From Candidatus Bipolaricaulota bacterium (GTDB lineage Bacteria > Bipolaricaulota > Bipolaricaulia > UBA7950 > UBA9294), in contig JAUWGE010000004.1 in NCBI GenBank assembly GCA_030606565.1, positions 3,256-67,255 on the forward strand: a DNA stretch of 64,000 nt. Reading direction: 5' to 3'. Under the pieces are notes generated by a model that worked only from the letters and a program-made list of their open reading frames with translations, was not told the DNA's origin and made no database searches. Below, in pieces: positions 6,253-56,991 of the stretch; the stretch's first letter is position 1; every line of letters starts with the position of its first letter. The position numbers and the translations under genes are program-made.

Positions 6253-7248
6253 GTGAAAAAAAAGAAACAACAGCGCCCTTTCGGATATCATCGTCTTCCC
6301 ATGAGGAAACACACTGAAGAGCTTGCTCCGTCTCATCCGGGTCACCTGCTTGCAGTTGGAGAGGCGCTCCTCACGGCCCTCATTTGGTCCTCCTCGTTTG
6401 TTGGGGTGAAGGTGGCGCTCACCTACACCGGCCCGTTCACCGTGGCTGGTTTGCGCTACTTCCTTGCTTTCCTGTTCCTCCTCCCGTGGCTCTTGAAGCA
6501 ACAGGGAAGATCACCCTCTCTCACCAAAGCGCAGTGGTCGCGGTTTACCCTCATGGGTTTTGCCCAGTACACGATCGGAAACGGTGCCCTATTTCTTGCC
6601 CTTAAAACGCTCTCAGCCACTACAGGCTCGCTCGCCCTGTGCTTGGCCCCAATCCCGGTTCTGCTGCTCGGGATAGTGCGGCTCAAGGAACAGCCGCGTC
6701 CCGTTCAACTGCTGGGGCTCGCGATCACGATCGGTGGGAGTGTCCTCTTCTTCTCCCCTGGGTTAGAGTTGAGAGACCCGCTTCCACTTGGTCTCCTCGC
6801 CATTGCCATCCTTAGTTTTTCCGCGTTTCCAGTGCTGGCACGTGAGGTGGCCCGTGATCGCCAGGTGGAGAATGTGACCCTGACGGCACTCCCACTGGGG
6901 ATCGGCGGCGGCATACTCCTCCTTCTTGCCGGATGGCTCGAGGGAATCCCTCACATGCCCCTCTTCGCGTGGGGAGTGATCCTGGGGCTCGCAATGGTGA
7001 ACACCCTGATCGCCTACCTCTTGTTTAACCACTCGTTACAGCATCTTACAGCCATTGAGGCGAACGTGATGTTAAACCTCGCTCCGCTGGGTACGGCACT
7101 GATCGCCTGGGGAGCCTTGGATGAGCGGCTCGTTCCGGTTCAGATCGCTGCCATGCTCCTGGTTGTGGGAGGCGCCAGCCTGGCACAGTGGCGAAAACGA
7201 ACTAAAGCGTCCCCGAGGCTCAGTTGCACCCCGCTGGAAGGCCTTTGA
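6253..7248 (+). CDS. EamA/DMT-family transporter
   Basis: 331-aa ORF with about 10 hydrophobic helices in two EamA-like repeats. The start is uncertain (GTG at 6253 or ATG at 6301). Confidence 0.8.
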   Translation: MKKKKQQRPFGYHRLPMRKHTEELAPSHPGHLLAVGEALLTALIWSSSFVGVKVALTYTGPFTVAGLRYFLAFLFLLPWLLKQQGRSPSLTKAQWSRFTLMGFAQYTIGNGALFLALKTLSATTGSLALCLAPIPVLLLGIVRLKEQPRPVQLLGLAITIGGSVLFFSPGLELRDPLPLGLLAIAILSFSAFPVLAREVARDRQVENVTLTALPLGIGGGILLLLAGWLEGIPHMPLFAWGVILGLAMVNTLIAYLLFNHSLQHLTAIEANVMLNLAPLGTALIAWGALDERLVPVQIAAMLLVVGGASLAQWRKRTKASPRLSCTPLEGL

Positions 7249-8887: not shown

Positions 8888-10735
8888 ATGGCAACGACCG
8901 AGCGCATCAACGAGAAGCTCGCTCAACTTCCCTCCTCTCCTGGGGTGTACCTGATGAAGGACGCGGGAGGGGCGGTGATCTACGTGGGGAAAGCCGCGGT
9001 GCTCAAAACCAGAGTCCGCTCCTACTTTCACTCAACTCAGGAGATGGAGGTAAAGACACGAGCGTTAGTGTCTGAGATCGCTGACCTTGAGGTCATCAAG
9101 ACCACCACCGAGGCAGAGGCGTTCATCCTCGAGGATAGCCTGATCAAGCGCCACCAGCCACGGTTTAACATCCGCCTGCGCGACGACAAACGCTATCCCT
9201 ACCTAAAGATCACCGACGAACCCTACCCGCGAGTGATGATCGTCCGCCGCCGACACAAAGACGGGGCCCGTTACTTCGGCCCCTATACCAACGCCAAGGC
9301 GATGCGATCGACCCTCAAGCTCGCCCAGAAGCTATTCCCAATTCGCACCTGTAACCTCACTCTCCCCTTAAAGAAGCCGCGCAGACCTTGCCTCAACTAC
9401 CATATCGGCCGTTGCCTGGGACCGTGCGCCGATATAGTGAACAAGGGGGAATACGCTCAAGCCGTCGAAGGAGCAGCGATGCTCTTCGATGGACGGACCT
9501 CTGGGTTGGTAAAGCGCCTGCGAAAGCGGATGACAGCGGCGGCCGTGGCGAAGCGGTTCGAGCAGGCAGCAAACATACGAAATCAGATCACCGCGCTTAG
9601 CCGCGCCCTCGAACGGCAGTCGGTCGCTCTCCCTGACCTCGTCGACCGCGACGCGATCGGGATCGCGATCAATAAAGATCGCGCCTGTGCCGAGGTCTTC
9701 CTCATCCGCGAGGGACGGTTATGCGGCCGGAAGACCTTTCACCTACGCGCCCCTCAAGAACCGAGTGTAAAGGAGGTCCTCTCCGCCTTCCTCGCTCAGT
9801 ACTACGCCGCGGCGACAACGATCCCACAGGAGGTCCTCCTCCCCGTGGAGATCTTAGATACAGAACAAATCAGCGCCTGGCTCTCCTCCCTACGCGGGAA
9901 GCGTGCAAGACTGAAGGTCCCCCAACGCGGGGAGAAGCACCGATTGGTCGAGATGGCGAACGAAAACGCGCGCTATTCCCTCAAAGGGGAGAGGATCTCC
10001 ACATCGCTCCGCGAAGAGTCAAGCGCCGCCTTGGCCGAGCTCGCCGAGGCGCTCTCCCTATCATCCTTCCCGCAGCGGATCGAGGCGTTCGACATCTCAA
10101 ATACGCAAGGTGGGGAGGCAACCGGGTCGATGGTCGTCTTCGAGAACGGACGTCCCCTGCGCGACGCCTACCGCCGGTTCAAGGTGCGCTTTGGAGGGAA
10201 ACCAGACGACTACGCGATGATGACCGAGGTCCTCCGCCGTCGTTTCCGCCGCGGCTTAGCCGAGTTAAACGATCCCAGCGTGTCGCGCGGGAAGTTCTCA
10301 CAGTTTCCCGACTTGTTGCTAATCGATGGGGGAAAGGGGCAACTGAACGTTGCCGTATCGGTCTTGAGCGAACTTGAGGTCGATGGGATCGAGACGATCG
10401 GTCTTGCCAAGCGTCACGAGGAGATCTTTCAGCCCGGAAAACCTGACCCGATTTGCCTTCCAGCAGAGAGCAAGGCGCTTCTCCTGCTACGCCAGATTCG
10501 CGATGAGGCCCATCGGTTCGCGATCACCTATCACCGCCGGCTGCGCGCCCGCCGCTCTCTCTCCTCGCAGCTCGATGAGATCCCAGGTGTAGGGCCAAAG
10601 AGAAGATCGGCACTGATCAAACACTTCGGCTCACTCGATCGGCTCTCGCGTGCAAGCACTGATGAGATCGCTTCCCTACCAGAGATTCCCCGCCCACTTG
10701 CCGAACGGATCGTCGAGTCGCTCGGCCGGTTCTGA
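8888..10735 (+). CDS. uvrC: excinuclease ABC subunit C
   Basis: GIY-YIG N-terminus (PGVYLMKDAGGAVIYVGKA…LKTRV), a UVR segment, the endonuclease domain (IEAFDISN…) and a C-terminal (HhH)2. The start is set at MATTERINEKL (ATG 8888) rather than the ORF-track start. Confidence 0.95.
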   Translation: MATTERINEKLAQLPSSPGVYLMKDAGGAVIYVGKAAVLKTRVRSYFHSTQEMEVKTRALVSEIADLEVIKTTTEAEAFILEDSLIKRHQPRFNIRLRDDKRYPYLKITDEPYPRVMIVRRRHKDGARYFGPYTNAKAMRSTLKLAQKLFPIRTCNLTLPLKKPRRPCLNYHIGRCLGPCADIVNKGEYAQAVEGAAMLFDGRTSGLVKRLRKRMTAAAVAKRFEQAANIRNQITALSRALERQSVALPDLVDRDAIGIAINKDRACAEVFLIREGRLCGRKTFHLRAPQEPSVKEVLSAFLAQYYAAATTIPQEVLLPVEILDTEQISAWLSSLRGKRARLKVPQRGEKHRLVEMANENARYSLKGERISTSLREESSAALAELAEALSLSSFPQRIEAFDISNTQGGEATGSMVVFENGRPLRDAYRRFKVRFGGKPDDYAMMTEVLRRRFRRGLAELNDPSVSRGKFSQFPDLLLIDGGKGQLNVAVSVLSELEVDGIETIGLAKRHEEIFQPGKPDPICLPAESKALLLLRQIRDEAHRFAITYHRRLRARRSLSSQLDEIPGVGPKRRSALIKHFGSLDRLSRASTDEIASLPEIPRPLAERIVESLGRF

Positions 10736-10900
10736 AGGACCACCGTACTGCTCAAATTTACACACAAAGGCCGCGGAATACTTGAATCTGATGCTCACTT
10801 GAGATACGTATCCAAGTAGCTTTACAGGAGTTCCTCGCTCCCACTGAACTCTGGTGTTGGATTGCAAGCCGCAATCCCATCTCTTTTCCAGCGAGAGAGG

Positions 10901-10941: not shown

Positions 10942-11262
10942 ATGTCGAAGCGACATTTTACCCTGATTTATGCACGGGAAGTAAAAAAACAGCTACAGGT
11001 GATTGAGCGCAAATACTATGCGCTGATTCGCAACGAGATTGAAGCACAACTACAGTTTGAGCCGGATGTAGAAACAAGGAACCGGAAGCCTTTGAAGCAC
11101 ACCGTGGTCTTTGAAGCAGAGTGGGAGATACGATTTGGGCCGAACAACCGATTTCGGGTGTCCTACGAAATAGATCGGGGGCAGGAGAAGGTGTACATCC
11201 TGGCGATAGGGGTGAAAGAGGGAAATCGGTTGGTCATAGGTGGAGAGGAAGTGGAACTATGA
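10942..11262 (+). CDS. type II toxin, RelE/ParE superfamily
   Basis: 106-aa ORF with the pattern …KKQL…I…L…P……KPLK…WEIRFGPNNRFRVSYEI…VYILAIG. ATGA overlap with the downstream Phd/YefM gene. Confidence 0.7.
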   Translation: MSKRHFTLIYAREVKKQLQVIERKYYALIRNEIEAQLQFEPDVETRNRKPLKHTVVFEAEWEIRFGPNNRFRVSYEIDRGQEKVYILAIGVKEGNRLVIGGEEVEL

Positions 11263-11525
11263 AGATAGTGTCAGTAGCAGAGGTGAAGGCACGGTTCAGC
11301 GCCTATTTGAGAGCGTCCGCAGAGGGGCCGGTGGTGGTGACACGGCACGGGAAGCCGGTGGCAGTGTTGCTGCCGGTAGAAGACGAGGAAGAGCTGGAGC
11401 GGCTGATACTGGTCTACACGCCGAGATTTCGAACGATATTGAATACAGCGCGGCAGCAGATTCGGGAGACGGGAGGCGTAGAACACAAGGAGTTCTGGCA
11501 GAAGGTTGAAGCAGAAAACACGTAA
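11259..11525 (+). CDS. type II antitoxin, Phd/YefM family
   Basis: MKIVSVAEVKARFSAYLRASAEGPVVVTRHGKPVAVLLPVEDEEELERL is a canonical Phd/YefM N-terminus. The start is placed at ATG 11259 inside ORF 11121-11525. Confidence 0.8.
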   Translation: MKIVSVAEVKARFSAYLRASAEGPVVVTRHGKPVAVLLPVEDEEELERLILVYTPRFRTILNTARQQIRETGGVEHKEFWQKVEAENT

Positions 11526-11611
11526 CAGAACAAGATAGCCTACAACGATGGGTTGGATTGCAAGACGCGCCCCTATACTTTCCGCATACTTTCCGTGACA
11601 GACAGGGTCTT

Positions 11612-11722
11612 CTGCGCTTGGCTCGCACGGCTCACACACGCGATGTCGAAGAGATCGCCTCCCTCCCCGAGATTCCCTCTTCCCTCGCCGAGCGGATCGT
11701 CGAGATCCTTGGGCGGCCCTGA
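11612..11722 (+). pseudogene. displaced remnant of the uvrC 3' end
   Basis: 11642-11722 translates to DVEEIASLPEIPSSLAERIVEILGRP*. The intact uvrC ends with TDEIASLPEIPRPLAERIVESLGRF* at 10735. Upstream, LARLTHA (compare LDRLSRAS in uvrC) lies in another frame. The two nucleotide copies are clearly alignable but diverged. Confidence 0.7.
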
Positions 11723-11905
11723 AGGCCATTATCCGCAGGTCAAACGGCTGTATGATATCGGAGCCCGGTGTTTTTGCGGCATGGACTTAAGGAGTTATGT
11801 TCGAAATTCATCACTTAACGGCGGGAGTTGGGAGGCGCTACGCGCTGACCAGCAGCGGATGGTAAGCCGCCTTCACTCCAAACGTAATACTGTCGCGCCT
11901 CGGCT

Positions 11906-12520
11906 TCAACCGGCAATTTCCTCTGCCACTTTCAACGTTCGATCCGCTAGAAATTCCAATCTCCTCTGAATCTCCTTTTCGTTTATCAGTCTTCCAAAGA
12001 GGTACTCGGTCTCGAAGCCAGCGTTGTTAATGACCTCGAAACCAGCCACTTTTCTTCCCATACACTTCACCTCGTCGGCCATGATAGATGGCGTCCACTG
12101 TGCACCACTTGACAAGTGAGGGGCAGCCAGCACCATGGCACTGACCACTGACTTCTTCAACTTCTCAACAGGCGCTTCTCGGCCAAGCGCCTGTTGCCTC
12201 TGGCTGAAGGCATTCCACAGAGCGGGCGGCAAACCTCCATAATTGGGCACGAAAAGGAACAGGATATCAGCAGCCCACGTCTTCTCCCAAATAGTCCGCA
12301 CATCGTCATCCATGGGACAAGGTGCATCAACACCCTTTTGAGGGTCGAAGCGCTGCAGACATTCATAAGCACAGTGTTGACAGGGAGTAATCCGATAGTC
12401 ATAGAAGTTGACCAGTTCAGTCTCTATGCCTGCCGCTTCTAGCCGGTCTAGTACAAACCGGGCAAAATCGTAGCAGTTCCCTTGCTTCCTGGCACTGACA
12501 ACTAAACCAAGTGCTTTCAT
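11906..12520 (-). CDS. flavodoxin-like / NADPH-dependent FMN reductase family protein (Isf-like)
   Basis: 204-aa ORF starting MKALGLVVSARKQGNCYDFARFVL…, with Cys-rich CQHCAYEC and a flavodoxin-fold pattern. Confidence 0.65.
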   Translation of the reverse strand: MKALGLVVSARKQGNCYDFARFVLDRLEAAGIETELVNFYDYRITPCQHCAYECLQRFDPQKGVDAPCPMDDDVRTIWEKTWAADILFLFVPNYGGLPPALWNAFSQRQQALGREAPVEKLKKSVVSAMVLAAPHLSSGAQWTPSIMADEVKCMGRKVAGFEVINNAGFETEYLFGRLINEKEIQRRLEFLADRTLKVAEEIAG

Positions 12521-12562
12521 AGTTCCTCCTCCTCCTTTGGGATTATGGGATAGTTGCTCTTT

Positions 12563-12640
12563 CGCCTAACGTTTTGCGTGTTTGCGAAGTTGCGAAACAA
12601 TTTAGGTGAGCAGAACGAACCGCAAACACGCTGTTAGGCG
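12563..12640 (-). other. attC-like integron recombination site
   Basis: The minus strand reads CGCCTAAC-A-GCGTGTTTGCG…(loop)…CGCAAACACGC-AAAAC-GTTAGGCG. The outer arms match RYYYAAC/GTTRRRY exactly. The site starts 18 nt after the GNAT stop and ends 43 nt before the next ATG. Confidence 0.7.
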
Positions 12641-12658
12641 ATGCCGCCGATGTTCCCT

Positions 12659-13078
12659 TTAACAAGTCTTCCTCAACTCCTTAAGCACAAGAAAGGCTGG
12701 TGTTCGTCTGAATCCCTTCTTCTCCCAGAAACTAACGCTTTGCTCAGTTATGGTAGCACTAACGGTTGGCGCACCACGGCGAAAGAGCTCTGCACAAACA
12801 GCATCAATGAGCGCACTGCCAATGCCACGATTCTGGTAGTCTGGATGTATTGAAAGAAGATGAATAAGCGCCCGAGAGCCATCATAAACTGCTCTGACGA
12901 ATCCGCAAGGTTGCTCTTCTACTTCGGCAACTAGGGAAACCGCAGACTCGCAGTTTGCTACTCTCCTCATCGCTCTCGGCCCATCAATAGTGGGATATTT
13001 ATATTGGTCGTTTAATTTAAGGATTTTAATCAGACAATCTATATCAGATTCTTTGAATCTCCGTATTTGCATTTCCAT
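12659..13078 (-). CDS. GNAT-family N-acetyltransferase
   Basis: 139-aa ORF with the acetyl-CoA motif IHPDYQNRGIGSALIDAV. Confidence 0.85.
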   Translation of the reverse strand: MEMQIRRFKESDIDCLIKILKLNDQYKYPTIDGPRAMRRVANCESAVSLVAEVEEQPCGFVRAVYDGSRALIHLLSIHPDYQNRGIGSALIDAVCAELFRRGAPTVSATITEQSVSFWEKKGFRRTPAFLVLKELRKTC

Positions 13079-13149
13079 AAAGCTCCCTCCTCTTGTAGCA
13101 TGTATCGGCGGTTTCGCCTAACTTGTTGACTGGCGCAATAGCGACGGGC

Positions 13150-13285
13150 GGCCTAACGAATCGCGCATCAGCTGCGCCAAGAGTGGTACGAGCCTTGCCC
13201 GCGAAGCGGAGTGCAGGGCAAGTGACACTGCCGGGGAGCGACGCCGCAAGCGCGGGGCGTCAGCTGCATGCGCTAGTTAGAGCGC
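13150..13285 (-). other. attC-like hairpin (long), with an extra orphan GTTAGGC core at 13115-13121
   Basis: The left arm cggcctaacgaatcgcgcatcagctgcgcc pairs with the right arm ggcgtcagctgcatgcgctagttagagcg. The right arm ends 12 nt after the stop of 13297-13881. A second GCCTAAC lies 37 nt upstream of the GNAT ATG. Confidence 0.5.
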
Positions 13286-13296
13286 TCGCCTCCAAG

Positions 13297-13881
13297 CTAC
13301 TTCTGCAGGTTCGCGAACGGAAGCTGGCCATGTTCACGCCTGAACTCAGCAAGCATCAGCCGCTCGACGTCGCGAGGCTCCTCGTCACCCGTGGGCCGCC
13401 AACACACAACAAGCTCGTCGGCGTCCGCCAACTGCCAGATGAAGCGCCCGCCCCAGTGGCCCACCGGCCGTCCTGCGCCGAACTCGAGGTAGCTACGAAG
13501 TCGCTTGCGCAAGGTGGCCGCACCTTCCGATCGCCCGGCCTTGCCTACGTACAACAGCCTGCCCTCGGGAACCCAAGCACCAGCGAGATCGGCGACGGGT
13601 GCGGTCGGGTCCCTCCCCTTGAACAGACCACCGGCGCTCCGGCCCAAGAAGACCGGCGGCTCGCCTGAGTCCCGAAGCACCGCGTAGACCCCAGCGCTAT
13701 CCGGGACCTCGCTCAGCGATGACTCACGAAGCTCCCGAACCGTCATGAAGCCTTCGAAGCCACTCTGCACCAGCCGATCTCGCTCGTTCAACACCGTTTC
13801 CTCTTCGACCGCTCCATCGGCATCCGCATAACCCGCTTGGCGGTTGCGGCGTGAGCACCCTCGCCAGCCGACCAACTCCAA
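13297..13881 (-). CDS. GIY-YIG nuclease superfamily-like protein
   Basis: GVYAVL…LLYVGKAG…LRKRL…E spacing resembles the GIY-YIG motif. An alternative start is ATG 13746 (MTVRELRES). The segment is visibly more GC-rich than the neighbouring cassettes. Confidence 0.5.
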   Translation of the reverse strand: MELVGWRGCSRRNRQAGYADADGAVEEETVLNERDRLVQSGFEGFMTVRELRESSLSEVPDSAGVYAVLRDSGEPPVFLGRSAGGLFKGRDPTAPVADLAGAWVPEGRLLYVGKAGRSEGAATLRKRLRSYLEFGAGRPVGHWGGRFIWQLADADELVVCWRPTGDEEPRDVERLMLAEFRREHGQLPFANLQK

Positions 13882-14151
13882 TGCGCGTGAGAGACTTGGA
13901 AAGCGCCGAGATTAGCCAAGTCGGGTCCATGCGGTGGTTAGCGCGGCCTTTGCTTTTGCCCAACGAATTTGCTCCCCTGAGACCTCACACAAAGACGCCT
14001 TCTCGACCTGCCGACAAATCCGCTTCCCTAAACCCCCTGCTTGCACCTGAAGGCAACTCCGTTTGACGCAATGCGCCTCACTGCGCTTGCTTGTCCGAAA
14101 CAGGGTGGGCACTATATTACCCCTTCTAATAAATTCAGTGACCCTTGTTTG

Positions 14152-14258
14152 ATGCATAACGCTCCGGGTGAGGTATGGCTCTCGGCAGTACGCAAACCAA
14201 AAGCCTTTACGATAAACCCGTCAACTTCTTGTCGTTACCTTCACCCGATGGTTAAGCG
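14152..14258 (-). other. attC-like hairpin
   Basis: Arms at 14153-14175 and 14236-14258 pair at 17 of 23 positions. In minus orientation the site reads GCTTAAC…GTTATGC. It begins 5 nt after the stop of the ABM gene. Confidence 0.5.
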
Positions 14259-14262
14259 TCCA

Positions 14263-14568
14263 TTACTTTTCAAAAAACACTTCATACAGAGCTGAGGTTT
14301 CTTCTTTCTCAAGCAAGAAAGCATCATCTTCTGGGTAATACTTGGCTTTCTCGGGGTACTCCCCGGCAAACTTCTTTACTGACTCCATCGAATCCCATAG
14401 GGTAACCAACAAGAAATGCGCTACGTCCCCGTCGATTCGCCGGAGGAAATAGAGTTTCTGCAAACCGTCTATGGATCCATAGTCGGGTGCTGCTCTCTCT
14501 TTCATAAATTCGGCATACTCATCGGCTTTAGATATGTTTGTTCTTCCATGCCAAAGTCTGACGATCAT
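14263..14568 (-). CDS. antibiotic biosynthesis monooxygenase (ABM)-like dimeric alpha/beta-barrel protein
   Basis: MIVRLWHGRTNISKADEYAEFMKE…FLLVTLWDSMESVKKFAG pattern. The start is trimmed to ATG 14568 so that it does not overlap the upstream attC-like site. Confidence 0.65.
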   Translation of the reverse strand: MIVRLWHGRTNISKADEYAEFMKERAAPDYGSIDGLQKLYFLRRIDGDVAHFLLVTLWDSMESVKKFAGEYPEKAKYYPEDDAFLLEKEETSALYEVFFEK

Positions 14569-14613
14569 TCCTAACCCTCTCTTCTGGTCTTTTTGCTGTG
14601 TCAGCATACGCTT

Positions 14614-14751
14614 GGCCACCCTAACGGCACCGGGTTCAGCCGCCGCGCGGCCAATGTGGAGACATCTTCGCTCGCGAAACCAATTACGCTAACCAGCAAG
14701 CCACAAAAACACGGCGCCCAGCGCGGTCGGCTGCAACCCGTTATTAGGTGC
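14614..14751 (-). other. attC-like hairpin (degenerate cores)
   Basis: ggccaccctaacggcaccgggttcagccgccgcgcgg pairs with cgcccagcgcggtcggctgcaacccgttattaggtgc. In minus orientation the R' side reads GTTAGGG. The site begins about 10 nt after the RibD_C gene stop. Confidence 0.45.
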
Positions 14752-14761
14752 ACTTCCGCCA

Positions 14762-15529
14762 CTAGACCTTGGGGTCAACCACTGTCTCATTGATCACATC
14801 ATACTCCAGGCGAAGGTATGAGTGCTCAAGTACTTCACACCTCACAAGTCTTAGCGCTTTCAGGTCAACCAGTTCCTCCTCGCTCTGCAGGGATCGTCCA
14901 TCAATAAGGCTAGATGTTGCCCGCCCACCCACGAGTAAAGGAGCCACAACGATCATAACGTGGTCGACCAACCCCTGGCGCACGAGGGTTGCGTTCAGTG
15001 TCCCGCCAGACTCAATGATCAAGTGTTCAATACCATATTGCTGCCTTACCTTTATCAACAGGTCGGCCAAGTTCACATCTTCAGGGTAGAATATGACTTC
15101 GGCGTTATCGTGAACTGATCGCACGGAGAATACAGGGTGCGACGGGTTGTTCGTAACGATGCACAATCTCCCTACCCACTGAGCCAGGTATCGAACACCG
15201 TTCTCGTTCAGATGCGGTTTTCGGTCAATGATGAAGAAAGTCAGGCGCTCATCCTTCTCTGGAGTCTCCGTCCGTGAATTGAGCCCGATCTTCTCCATCA
15301 CTCTACCTGTGCTCAAGGAGTTCACGGCGATAGAGTATTCGATCTGATAGTACTGATGCAGACCTTCCTTGACTCCCCTTATCCTTCTCCAGTCTCGATC
15401 TGAGTCCAGAGTATCGCTTTCTCCAGATGTGATCTTGCCGTCAACGGACATAAGGAGGAAGAGGGTAGTTTCCGCGCGAGCAGTCTTCCCGAGCCCAGGA
15501 GGTGTAGGGTTGACTTGTGGAGAACTCAT
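14762..15529 (-). CDS. RibD C-terminal domain / dihydrofolate reductase-family protein
   Basis: 255-aa ORF. LFLLMSVDGKITSG… and …IIESGGTLNATLVRQGLVDHVMIVVAPLLVGG are characteristic of RibD_C-type reductases. Confidence 0.75.
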   Translation of the reverse strand: MSSPQVNPTPPGLGKTARAETTLFLLMSVDGKITSGESDTLDSDRDWRRIRGVKEGLHQYYQIEYSIAVNSLSTGRVMEKIGLNSRTETPEKDERLTFFIIDRKPHLNENGVRYLAQWVGRLCIVTNNPSHPVFSVRSVHDNAEVIFYPEDVNLADLLIKVRQQYGIEHLIIESGGTLNATLVRQGLVDHVMIVVAPLLVGGRATSSLIDGRSLQSEEELVDLKALRLVRCEVLEHSYLRLEYDVINETVVDPKV

Positions 15530-15895
15530 CTTATTGTCTCCTCTGGTTCAGTTCTGTGCAGTTCTGTGCGCCTAACAATGATTAGTCTGCAAACCTGCAA
15601 CATAATGCCAGGAGTTATATACCTTGTCAACTGCGAAGACATGGCCGTTCCACCACGTTTCTGTACAAATATCGGCAAGAAGATCCTTGCATGGAAGGAT
15701 GTAGATATGAAGCTGCTGGATCAAGTACAACAGGTTTGTCGCGCCAAGCACTACCTGATGTCGTTGCAGAACAATATCGTTTTTGTTATACTTTCGCCAT
15801 GAAATGGGGTACCTTTCTCAAACAATTCGGGAACTGCCCGGTGATCGAACCAGCAATCGTCTATGCCAGTCAGCTACACTTCATTGGTATCCGTT

Positions 15896-16231
15896 CTATT
15901 CCCTTGGTTTTATGAGTCGGTCCAGTAGAATGTCTTCTACGTTTCTCCGTGAATCGAGCACAGATAGGACGAATACATTCTTCCCTGCTGTTCTGTACAT
16001 GATCCGCCAAGGGGGAACAATCAACTCTCGATATTGCAGGATACCTTGATCTTGTAATTCTGGCACGATGCGTCCGCGCTCGGGGGAATGATAAAGTTGC
16101 GCGGCGGCTTCTTTGATTTTTTTCAGTATTCTCAGTGCGTTTGAAGGGCTGTTATTGGCTACGTAGCCTACAATATCAGCCAAATCATTCTCAGCTGTCG
16201 CAGCCCACATTACCTCGTATTTCTCGCTCAT
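15896..16231 (-). CDS. type II toxin, ParE/RelE family
   Basis: 111-aa ORF with …AENDLADIVGYV…A…I…I…L…P..G….EL……YRELIVPPWRIMYR…VFVLSVLDSRR. 4-nt overlap with the upstream antitoxin. Confidence 0.8.
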   Translation of the reverse strand: MSEKYEVMWAATAENDLADIVGYVANNSPSNALRILKKIKEAAAQLYHSPERGRIVPELQDQGILQYRELIVPPWRIMYRTAGKNVFVLSVLDSRRNVEDILLDRLIKPRE

Positions 16232-16503
16232 TTACCTGTCAGTAATTTCTCTATATTTTCAAATACACTCTTTTGAGATTTCGATCTGCCATTCTTAATA
16301 TCCTCTTCACCCTGTGAGAGAAGTTTTAAAATCCCTATAGCATTTCGCATGTTTTCATAACTCTTTGGATCCTGCAACACTGCTCTTGGTTCCCCCTTTT
16401 GCGTAATGACCACAGGGCGACGAGTCTCATTGATCTGCTTCAATAGATCCGCTGCTTTGGATTTGAGATATGTCACCGACTTGATGTCTGTCGAAATGTT
16501 CAT
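16228..16503 (-). CDS. type II antitoxin, Phd/YefM family
   Basis: MNISTDIKSVTYLKSKAADLLKQINETRRPVVITQKGEPRAVLQD. The start is set at ATG 16503, preceded by GGAGGTGG. The longer ORF-track start at 16794 is rejected. Confidence 0.8.
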   Translation of the reverse strand: MNISTDIKSVTYLKSKAADLLKQINETRRPVVITQKGEPRAVLQDPKSYENMRNAIGILKLLSQGEEDIKNGRSKSQKSVFENIEKLLTGK

Positions 16504-17194
16504 CACTACCACCTCCGGCCTTTTTATGGTATCAAATTCAGACCGTAAGTCAAGAGTAACAACTCTCTCTGGGATGGAGGCGACGGTGGGGATGAGCATA
16601 CGAAACTTCGAGAGACGATCAGGTGCATAGATGATCTCGCTGATGATAACCAGAAGGGCAATGGGGCCTGGACTCCCCACCCCACGAACGAGGGCTATAG
16701 CGTGGCAACCATAATCGTTGCAGAAGAATATCATTTGTGTTGTTTTTCTACCATGAAGTGAGGAACTTCTCCGCAGCTCAAAATGAGCACTCAATCGTAC
16801 GCGATAGACTGGAGAAACTCGACTGGCTCGCCGTTTCAGAGGACGTTTCCGCCTTCCTCGAACATCCTGCCGAACGGTCCCTCCTCACCAAAAGGACGCT
16901 CCTAGCCGCGTTAGAGCGCGCAGAGGGAGGGATTGATTAATTTAACGAGTGAGTGAGTGAGTGATTTAACATCTCAATCTCCCGATCATCCAATCTCTCA
17001 ATTTCTCAGCGCCCTCTGCGGTAAAAGGCTTGGGTAGGGTTTGGGCTTGAAACTGAGTAGCGGAAAAGATTTACTCAAATAGGCTGCCATAGCTCCTCCA
17101 TTTGGAGTAAGATCCCAAGGGCGATTCCTTTCTCTGATTGCAAGAGTAAAACCGCTCTCTATAATCTTCCTTGACTTCGGAAGGAGGCTTTTTT

Positions 17195-18253
17195 ATGGAA
17201 TTGATCGATCTCTTAGGCGAACTTTCAGACGCGTTCGGTGTTTCCGGCTTTGAGGATGAGGTACGAGAAAGGATCACGGACCTTGTTTCGCCGTACGTCG
17301 ATGAGGTAAAGACCGACACGTTGGGGAACCTCTTCGCCACACGGACGGGGAAAGAGGAGTTCACCCTGATGCTCGACGCCCACATGGACGAGGTGGGTTT
17401 CATGGTGAAGTGGATCGATGAGAAAGGGTACCTCCGCTTCACCCCGCTCGGCGGGTGGGATGAGCGAATCATCCCCAGCCACCGCGTTGAAATCCTCACC
17501 CGTTCGCGTGAGAAGCGCTATGGGGTGATCGGTTCCGCCCCACCACATATCTTAAAAGAGGAGGAACGAAAGCAGCCGATCCCTCTCGAGAAGATGTTCA
17601 TCGATGTCGGGGCTTCGTCGAGGCAGGAAGCCGTTGACATGGGGATAAACATTGGTGACCCGCTCACGATCCACTACCCGTTCACGGAACTCCACGACGG
17701 TTACGTCACGGGGAAGGCATTCGACGATCGGGTGGGGTGCGCGGTGATGATCGAGACGGCGCGTCGGCTGGCAGAGCGTGACCTTAATGTGAATGTGGCC
17801 TTCTCCTTTGTCATCGGTGAGGAGGTGGGGCTGCGCGGGGCGCGCACTGCTGCCTATCAGATCGATCCGGATCTCGCTCTCGCCCTGGAGGGGACGATCG
17901 GGGCGGACATGCCCGGGATCCCTGAGGAGAATCAGCCGGTCCGCCTCGGCCGCGGCCCAGCGATCACGGTCGCTGACCACACGATCATCGTCTCCCGTCG
18001 GATGGTCGAAGCATTGGAACAGGCAGCAGTCACTGAAGAAGCTACAATACCGTACCAATACAAATTACCCATCTATGGAGGGACCGACGCCGGTGCCATT
18101 CACATCTCCCGAGCGGGGGTCCTCACCGGCGTGGTCTCTGTCCCCTGCCGGTTCATCCATTCGCCGACCTCTACCCTGCGGTTGAACGACCTTGAGAATA
18201 CGGTCCGGTTGGTGACTAGGTTTATCGAAGCCCTCCCTGACATCCTGCCGTAG
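17195..18253 (+). CDS. M42-family glutamyl aminopeptidase / endoglucanase-like (FrvX family)
   Basis: ATG 17195 lies 7 nt after AAGGAGG. The text LLGELSDAFGVSGFEDEVRE…DAHMDEVGFMV…GKAFDDRVG…EEVGLRGA is typical of M42 peptidases. Confidence 0.85.
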   Translation: MELIDLLGELSDAFGVSGFEDEVRERITDLVSPYVDEVKTDTLGNLFATRTGKEEFTLMLDAHMDEVGFMVKWIDEKGYLRFTPLGGWDERIIPSHRVEILTRSREKRYGVIGSAPPHILKEEERKQPIPLEKMFIDVGASSRQEAVDMGINIGDPLTIHYPFTELHDGYVTGKAFDDRVGCAVMIETARRLAERDLNVNVAFSFVIGEEVGLRGARTAAYQIDPDLALALEGTIGADMPGIPEENQPVRLGRGPAITVADHTIIVSRRMVEALEQAAVTEEATIPYQYKLPIYGGTDAGAIHISRAGVLTGVVSVPCRFIHSPTSTLRLNDLENTVRLVTRFIEALPDILP

Positions 18254-56861: not shown

Positions 56862-56991
56862 AATTGCCCAGCCATGGGTTCCACTGTACCGGCTGAAGGC
56901 GTGCCTTCAGACAGCCAGTGAACCCAAGCGATGGAGCGGGCGCAAAGCGATCCATCGAGCTGCCGTTTGCAATTTTCTAAAGGTAAAGAGC

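Follow-up and report, generated by a model that had tools for sequence, protein, structure and literature searches.

The window analysed here is a 64-kb stretch of the genome of a Candidatus Bipolaricaulota bacterium, and the element under study is a gene-cassette array that lies in it between uvrC and the gene of an M42 peptidase. An earlier note, made from the letters alone, had proposed at 11723-17170 an integron-type array without an integrase, akin to the clusters of attC sites lacking integrases (CALINs). Both the scores of the attC sites and the variation found at G|TT among relatives support an integron-type array without a functional integrase; the variable array is, however, shorter than proposed (11819-15575). 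The locus displays attC architecture, junctions placed exactly at G|TT, a stub of the integrase gene intI, and cassettes that have been gained, lost and reshuffled among sister contigs.

The order uvrC, M42 peptidase, aminotransferase and PAP2 is kept across Bipolaricaulota. In about 35 other loci the M42 peptidase gene starts 60-330 bp past uvrC, and the aminotransferase and PAP2 genes come after it. Because uvrC abuts the M42 peptidase gene in these relatives, the interval 10.7-17.2 kb of the window is material inserted into a conserved junction, at a fixed chromosomal position and not on a mobile element. The genomes closest by uvrC are Bipolaricaulota metagenome-assembled genomes (MAGs), the nearest being MAG JAGLXM01 (locus L004), with 94% amino-acid identity; labels L001 to L193 designate the relatives' loci and metagenome contigs with which the window was compared. 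Parts of the array recur at 99-100% identity in contigs from the ZHAN22-2 metagenomes and from SRR14876846. With L004 the window is collinear at about 91% identity, except in the array segment and in the AbiEi/AbiEii genes. Window positions 11871-15581, with five genes, correspond in L004 to a 1-kb segment with one DUF5677-like gene, and are the sole stretch without a counterpart in this sister genome. An exact-protein look-up returned no record for the products of the M42 peptidase, FMN_red and ABM-like genes or for those of two ORFs (open reading frames) of 81 and 194 aa.

The array is made of five ORF cassettes and two ORF-less units. Its components, starting from the side of attI, are as follows:

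15707-15754, plus strand: intI stub, first 16 codons, MKLLDQVQQVCRAKHY, divergent from the cassettes
15602-15630, minus strand: Pc-like promoter, TTGACA-17 nt-(TG)CATTAT, directed into the array
15570-15590, minus strand: attI core, GCAGACTAATCATTG|TTAGGC, insertion point of new cassettes
11819-15575, minus strand: cassette array of 3757 bp and 7 cassettes, bounded by the attI crossover (G15576|T15575) and the terminal R' crossover (G11819|T11818)
14625-15575, minus strand: cassette 1, RibD_C/DHFR-family gene (15529-14762) and attC site 4
14160-14624, minus strand: cassette 2, small ABM-like gene (14568-14263) and attC site 3
13832-14159, minus strand: cassette 3, ORF-less, with a degenerate attC hairpin (about 13935-13826) and R' box GTTATGC (13832-13826)
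13157-13831, minus strand: cassette 4, GC-rich GIY-YIG-like gene (probable start 13750, or 13881; stop 13297) and attC site 2
13122-13156, minus strand: 35-nt unit in the position of cassette 5, flanked by two identical GTTAGGC cores and devoid of both ORF and hairpin
12570-13121, minus strand: cassette 6, GNAT acetyltransferase gene (13078-12659) and attC site 1
11819-12569, minus strand: cassette 7, FMN_red/flavodoxin-like gene (12520-11906) and a decayed terminal attC (11868-11813, GCTTACC...GTTAAGT)

Five of the six units counted in the earlier note are thus cassettes; two ORF-less units have to be added to them, and the sixth, ParE-Phd, is not a cassette, as it has no attC and belongs to a flank common to L004. 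Most of the gene families proposed in that note were supported by Pfam: RibD_C (E 1e-17) for cassette 1, Acetyltransf_1 (E 3e-14) for the GNAT gene, FMN_red for cassette 7, and ParE and Phd for the flanking module. The names ABM (E 0.14) and GIY-YIG (a match to the GIY-YIG part of PRK07883) go back to weak matches only. Base composition shifts between cassettes as had been described, with a GC content of 0.64-0.68 in the GIY-YIG-like unit versus 0.44-0.54 in its neighbours. The core GTTAGGC is concentrated in the region: five of the nine copies present in the window sit in 12.5-15.6 kb.

Some of the units deserve comment. Cassette 3 ends in a long imperfect hairpin in the bottom-strand fold, which the covariance model described below does not match; GC content rises at the boundary, which would lie at the position given above. 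The 35-nt unit is probably the remnant of a deleted cassette. In cassette 6, the opening 19 nt and the 19 nt that run to the end of its own R'' box are complementary, a relation expected of a unit that circularises at G|TT. The rule that R'' matches the cassette's own 5' TTRRRY is clear for the GNAT and FMN_red cassettes and uninformative for the others. The terminal attC of cassette 7 does not fold in the window, while the FMN_red gene of contig L001 has an intact attC (24.1 bits). The terminal R' box of cassette 7 is a genuine junction, since homology with the sister contigs resumes there.

The attC sites of the array

Four imperfect hairpins whose outer arms resemble the attC cores RYYYAAC and GTTRRRY, together with two orphan GTTAGGC cores (13122-13116 and 15576-15570), had been described in the earlier note and are present within 1-3 nt of the positions initially given. 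Each of the hairpins begins 5-19 nt past a stop codon. For scoring, a surrogate covariance model (R1) with 16 base pairs was built from 12 class-1 integron attC sites found in public plasmid records (aadA1, aadA2, aadA5, aadB, aacA4, arr-3, blaVIM-2, cmlA1, estX, psp, qacL and aac(6')-29a); the dfrA12 and dfrA27 sites were left out because MAFFT misaligned their 3' halves. All 12 sites of the model share the arrangement R''(7)-5 nt-L'' with one extra base ... L'-5/6 nt-R'(7). The model was run on the whole window with filters off, and in a local search that covered 4.1 kb. Whole-window results for the four hairpins were:

14749-14619, minus strand: site 4, ACCTAAT...GTTAGGG; 21.3 bits, E 0.004, top match of the window
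13282-13151, minus strand: site 2, CTCTAAC...GTTAGGC; 15.7 bits, E 0.13
12639-12564, minus strand: site 1, GCCTAAC...GTTAGGC; 9.6 bits, E 5.9
14257-14154, minus strand: site 3, GCTTAAC...GTTATGC; not among the matches listed

In the local search the four sites were the best minus-strand matches, with E values of 2.5e-4, 0.0086, 0.38 and 0.65, the last one corresponding to site 3 (8.8 bits). E values below 1 were therefore obtained for two sites in the whole-window search and for all four in the local search, so that the hairpins score in the covariance test suggested by the earlier note, run here with a surrogate. The array has the core boxes, the paired L boxes and the extrahelical base on the R''-L'' arm that define attC. 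The extra L'' base is found in sites 2, 3 and 4, on the canonical arm, as the orientation of the genes requires. The L box of site 4, GTT-G-CAGCCGACC, is the same as in the attC of blaVIM-2. The R'-side spacer of the window sites is 8-9 nt long, not 6.

Two matches of similar score were found by the model outside the array, at 7023-7077 and 56866-56936 (E 0.18 and 0.08). They are internal to long ORFs, were taken as chance matches and illustrate the limited specificity of the model. A hand-written attC grammar (AAC...GTT, complementary boxes, stem) was discarded, as its 118 matches in the window made it too permissive to serve as evidence.

When the model was applied to 718 kb of Bipolaricaulota uvrC loci (E<=10), four of five matches fell in contigs with cassettes downstream of uvrC, namely L001 (24.1 bits), L002, L004 and L008 (20.4 bits); the fifth, in L025, was weak (13.6 bits). 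Higher scores were found in 11 sister contigs of the same locus, whose attC sites reached 37-49 bits (E down to 1e-10), all of them on the strand of the array. In an alignment of 19 attC sites of the lineage, 90% of cells were paired, and compensatory changes on both sides were detected in 11 of the 16 pairs. The covariation score was 0.49, versus 0.14 in shuffles (none of 500 reached 0.49) and at most 0.09 when the partners were slid.

The attI site and the remnant of intI

No attI had been recognised in the window by the earlier note. The orphan core GTTAGGC at 15576-15570 is, however, the attI crossover, and 130 bp from it, on the opposite strand, is the 16-codon intI stub. In 11 sister contigs GCAGACTAATCATTG|TT is kept up to the G; the sequence before the intI ATG is conserved up to gcagactaatcattG, and divergence begins right after G|TT. 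At least nine different sequences follow G|TT at attI among these contigs. Examples of the sequence found after the attI G are:

Window: TTAGGCgcac
L115: TTAACCCC
L126: TTCAGCGA
L128: TTGGCGCA
L129: TTAGGCCAAT
L132: TTGCGAGG
L165: TTGGGCGG
L168: TTAGAAAC
L179: TTGTGCAT

Distant integrons with an intact IntI (L154, 328 aa) have TAATCATTG|TT in common. Between attI and the stub, the Pc-like match is the best of sigma-70 type in 11600-17200, with 10 of 12 positions and an extended -10. It is a match to the consensus only, and this candidate promoter may drive the array.

The stub reads ATG AAG CTG CTG GAT CAA... and was first flagged by a weak tblastn match. A profile made from seven IntI N-termini was then searched against the six-frame translations of the window and L004, and its two best matches were the window stub and its L004 counterpart (13.8 bits with E 0.004-0.008 for the window stub, and 12.3 bits for L004; E 0.004-0.02 over the two). 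Pfam and NCBIfam gave no match for the stub peptides of 31 and 38 aa, which are too short. A scan of metagenomes with the pattern ATG-AAR-CTN-CTN-GAN-CAR-GTN-N18-AAR-CAY-TAY (MKLL[DE]QV-x6-KHY) retrieved 95 contigs. The full-length IntI profile was matched by 78 of the 95 ORFs that start at the motif, with lengths up to 349 aa and E down to 1e-150, and nine contigs have the truncated ORF of the window (KHY|L[M/I]SLQKN...). L165 and L168 carry the N-terminus of the lineage (the closest being MKLLEQVRQAWRDKHY, from L004) followed by SPRTKEAYARWIE; in L168, frameshifted integrase sequence extends to about codon 55.

A complete ORF of at least 285 aa was found in 17 of the 95 motif contigs (L099-L193). 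Most others stop at 24-60 aa, apart from a few that run off their contig. In these sediment metagenomes, intI genes with truncations or frameshifts seem very common.

Neither tblastn nor a six-frame search with the full-length IntI profile detected a tyrosine recombinase gene or any other integrase signal in the 64-kb window, as the earlier note had stated; what stands beside the array is the 16-codon stub in place of an intact intI. Among about 80 uvrC loci searched by tblastn with IntI1, VchIntIA and XerD, the sole integrase signal was a fragment in L001, which scores 70.9 bits on TIGR02249 versus 47.7 on XerC. A protein word-index search with this 45-aa fragment retrieved short C-terminal fragments only, and no full-length relative.

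The L001 fragment is part of a fusion: at 1663-1863, a 5' fragment of a DUF3795 gene is fused in frame to a C-terminal fragment of IntI. Protein P0026 is a similar fusion in which the 5' fragment is that of PemK, and hundreds of such IntI C-terminal fragments, 44-79 aa long, are found in the protein database.

Cassette variation among relatives and the flanks of the array

The presence or absence of individual cassettes differs between relatives, with breaks at G|TT at an internal attC, at the attI end and at the terminal end; the gene order is not conserved as a block, and the comparison proposed in the earlier note gave the outcome expected of cassettes. L096 matches the window over 15624-14157 at 99.3%, up to the GTTA of the R' box of cassette 2, with the break at 14160|14159. 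L096 reads ...cacccggagcGTTA there and then continues into a different, AT-rich cassette, whereas the window has GTTATGCatcaaac. L001 carries the GNAT and FMN_red cassettes as in the window, followed by another small cassette and the DUF3795-integrase fusion. At the distal end, the window becomes homologous again to L128, L176, L179 and L168 from 11820-11822, at the terminal R' box GTTAAGT (11819-11813). L128 has there a 43.6-bit attC ending in GTTAAAT, beyond which its flank is that of the window.

Sister arrays are 1.1-6.6 kb long. The array of L165 is that of L179 preceded by one additional first cassette, and cassettes recur at different array positions: the second cassette of L126 is the first one after a second attI in L165. 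All 11 sister contigs with this attI and intI stub have flanks from the uvrC-M42 locus, insofar as their length allows the flanks to be seen.

Other arrangements were also observed. L144 and L165 have a second module made of attI plus stub (L144 1847/6059; L165 7302/9675) and further intI fragments, and two copies of the terminal flank lie about 960 bp apart in L129 (2323/3285) and L144 (7468/8430). These duplicated modules and flanks suggest tandem duplication of integron platforms or recombination between them. In the more distant L008 (uvrC 79% identical), the genes that follow uvrC at 11941-13135 are on the strand of uvrC, opposite to the window array: a VOC/glyoxalase-like gene comes first, with no attC recognised after it, and a GIY-YIG-like gene with an attC of 20.4 bits comes next.

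The flanks contain toxin-antitoxin (TA) modules and duplicated gene ends:

15896-16503, minus strand: ParE-Phd module, ParE 16231-15896 and Phd 16503-16228 (Pfam ParE and PhdYeFM)
11648-11725, plus strand: second copy of the uvrC 3' end, a remnant with 77% identity to the live one (10661-10738)

ParE-Phd had been viewed as a TA module that stabilised the array from within. It lies, however, on the intI side of attI and gives no attC match; as its flank is common to L004, it is not a cassette but a flanking module. The promoter and 5' end of AbiEi are duplicated on either side of it (window 15761-15874 and 16715-16771, 75-85% identity; L004 14200-14310 and 15139-15251). The AbiEi copy beside the intI stub forms the truncation junction, and L126, which lacks ParE-Phd, has a single copy. 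The type IV TA system AbiEi/AbiEii, located upstream of the M42 peptidase gene in L004 and in most sister loci, has been lost in the window (16740-16940 versus L004 15163-16627), where a C-terminal remnant of AbiEii persists at 16791-16940 as a 67-codon ORF.

The pattern is repeated on the uvrC side, where the duplicated last 78 nt of uvrC bracket a 0.9-kb insert with a Gp49/RelE-like toxin gene (10942-11262) and a Phd antitoxin gene (11265-11525), and the same arrangement is found in all sister loci. The remnant at 11648-11725 marks an old chromosomal boundary beside the array. A motif starting with GATTGCAAG occurs in three copies (10860-10884, 11556-11580 and 17136-17160), the last of which overlaps a promoter-like site before the M42 peptidase gene. 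Each insertion may have duplicated parts of the intergenic sequence that originally separated uvrC from the M42 gene.

Origin and present activity of the array

Altogether, the region is very probably a sedentary chromosomal integron established in the uvrC-M42 junction, a once complete integron that has degraded through destruction of its integrase. Its anatomy runs from the divergent 16-codon intI stub, across some 130 bp with the Pc-like promoter and attI, through seven cassettes, each closed by an attC site or what remains of one, to the terminal G|TT. In place of the rest of intI stand an AbiEi promoter fragment and ParE-Phd, to which sister genomes add AbiEi/AbiEii.

Several observations weigh against this reading. 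Site 1 lacks an extrahelical L-box base, which sites 2, 3 and 4 have. It has instead a 4-nt bulge on the R'-L' side, and the model matches its R boxes only. Both site 1 and site 3 score poorly, and the attC sites of cassette 3 and of the terminal cassette are degenerate. L004 lacks the cattG of attI, and is considered a deletion variant. The stub is only 16 codons long, and no intact integrase that might act in trans was found for this lineage. R1 is a surrogate and not the attC model of IntegronFinder, its E values are rough, and the alignment used to measure covariation had been fitted to it. Lastly, no other contig among those retrieved spans the joint of cassettes 2 and 3 at 14160.

Could the hairpins be transcription terminators or generic palindromes in an ordinary, operon-poor islet? 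Their location just past stop codons would suit such a function, and three of the four have modest fold z-scores (-1.3 to -2.3, compared with -5.3 for site 1). Yet the hairpins are not followed by T-tracts, and the five terminator-like calls in 11600-17200 all lie elsewhere. Their cores fit RYYYAAC/GTTRRRY, their extra bases are on the canonical arm, they share no sequence family outside the cores, and relatives break exactly at G|TT; terminators are thus an extremely improbable explanation. It is also highly unlikely that homology-driven or illegitimate insertion filled the junction as a recombination hotspot, without integron machinery. The TA modules do appear to have arrived in such a manner, as both have diverged copies of neighbouring gene ends (75-85% identical) on either side, and the opposite orientation of the L008 cassettes after uvrC would be in line with it. 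Insertion of this kind accounts for the TA modules, but not for the attC structures, the attI core, the intI stub or the differences of a single cassette at G|TT. A partial assembly chimera of co-existing strain variants is somewhat less remote, though still unlikely. The same metagenome contains variant arrays, L001 and L096, that differ after common cassettes, and the cassette order at 14160 could be an assembly join of strain variants because no independent contig supports it. The other junctions are nevertheless covered by 100%-identical contigs (L002 for 13874-12467, L097 for 16025-14667 and L098 for 15638-14525), and a chimera would alter the order of the cassettes without changing the nature of the element.

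If the region is a degraded integron, a further question is whether its array still changes. The IntI tyrosine recombinase joins a folded bottom-strand attC to attI, cleaving between G and TT, and an attI x attC event places a circular cassette in first position; cassettes are excised by attC x attC or attI x attC recombination, and those proximal to attI are transcribed from Pc. In this genome the array would be unable to rearrange by itself, and turnover of cassettes in the population would need an integrase provided in trans. That some turnover took place after the truncation of intI has roughly an even chance. It is plausible because contigs with different first cassettes have the same truncation junction.

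Two views of the present state can be confronted. One is that the locus is purely a fossil: the cassette differences would predate the loss of intI, the truncated allele would have spread by homologous recombination of the flanks, and no integrase would act on the array now. The probability of this view is only just short of even. It agrees with the absence of an integrase from the window, the truncation of all intI copies seen in the lineage, the decay of the terminal and cassette-3 attC sites, and the other recombination scars (duplicated gene ends) borne by the flanks. It has to face, however, nine contigs with an identical KHY|LMSLQ junction and at least seven different first cassettes inserted exactly at G|TT, as well as the pair formed by L096 and the window, which differ in one cassette swap at only 0.7% nucleotide divergence. 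Spread of the allele would in addition require many separate crossovers inside a 180-bp interval. The shared truncation and the swap at 0.7% divergence point instead to an integrase in trans. A tentative alternative, to which we assign a somewhat less than even probability, is therefore that the attI platform, having lost its own integrase, is still loaded and unloaded by one encoded elsewhere.

Whichever view is adopted, the degraded integron of the uvrC-M42 junction is a CALIN by the operational definition of IntegronFinder: a CALIN has two or more same-strand attC sites within 4 kb but no integrase gene (PMC4889954, PMC9024848), and the window has two attC sites in the whole-window search and four in the local search, as counted with the surrogate model, with no integron-integrase gene within 4 kb. 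Integrase calls follow a rule of 50% profile coverage (PMC4889954); the 16-codon stub would fail it, so that no integrase would be called. Unlike most CALINs, the window array keeps attI and a recognisable intI 5' stub; according to Cury et al. 2016 (PMC4889954), a recognisable intI pseudogene is missing from the vicinity of about 95% of CALINs.

Comparison with other integrons is also instructive. As in sedentary chromosomal integrons and the Vibrio superintegron, the site is fixed between housekeeping genes, the arrays vary among relatives, and intI is often inactivated. The integrons that adjoin ilvD in Xanthomonas are sedentary chromosomal integrons with decayed integrases. The array is small, with 7 cassettes (1-7 kb in sisters), and its attC sites vary in sequence and in length (76-132 nt) whereas the Vibrio repeats are uniform. 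The replacement of the intI body by TA modules sets the locus apart from other sedentary chromosomal integrons. Class 1 integrons offer another parallel: intI and the cassettes diverge, an inverted CTAA motif precedes the attI crossover G|TTAGGC, and attC has the geometry R''-5 nt-L'' with one extra base ... L'-R'. The differences are that the element is not on a transposon or plasmid, has no resistance genes, has an R' spacer of 8-9 nt versus 6, and has a dead integrase.

Degraded integrons and CALINs are already well described (PMC4889954, PMC9024848), and the present element, which has no resistance genes, leaves the integron concept unchanged. Our search of a paper library found no report of integrons in Bipolaricaulota or Acetothermia, and the locus adds Candidatus Bipolaricaulota (Acetothermia/OP1), an uncultured phylum, to the range of integron and CALIN biology. 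It also makes the formation of a CALIN unusually visible: intI decays stepwise, from about 55 codons in L168 to 16 in the window, and attI and the array persist. Whether CALINs can be active in trans was raised as a question by Cury et al. 2016 (PMC4889954), and sister contigs with a single truncation and different first cassettes provide a natural test of such activity in arrays without an integrase. If loading in trans does occur, an orphan attI with its array would stay an active site of gene capture after the death of the integrase in cis.

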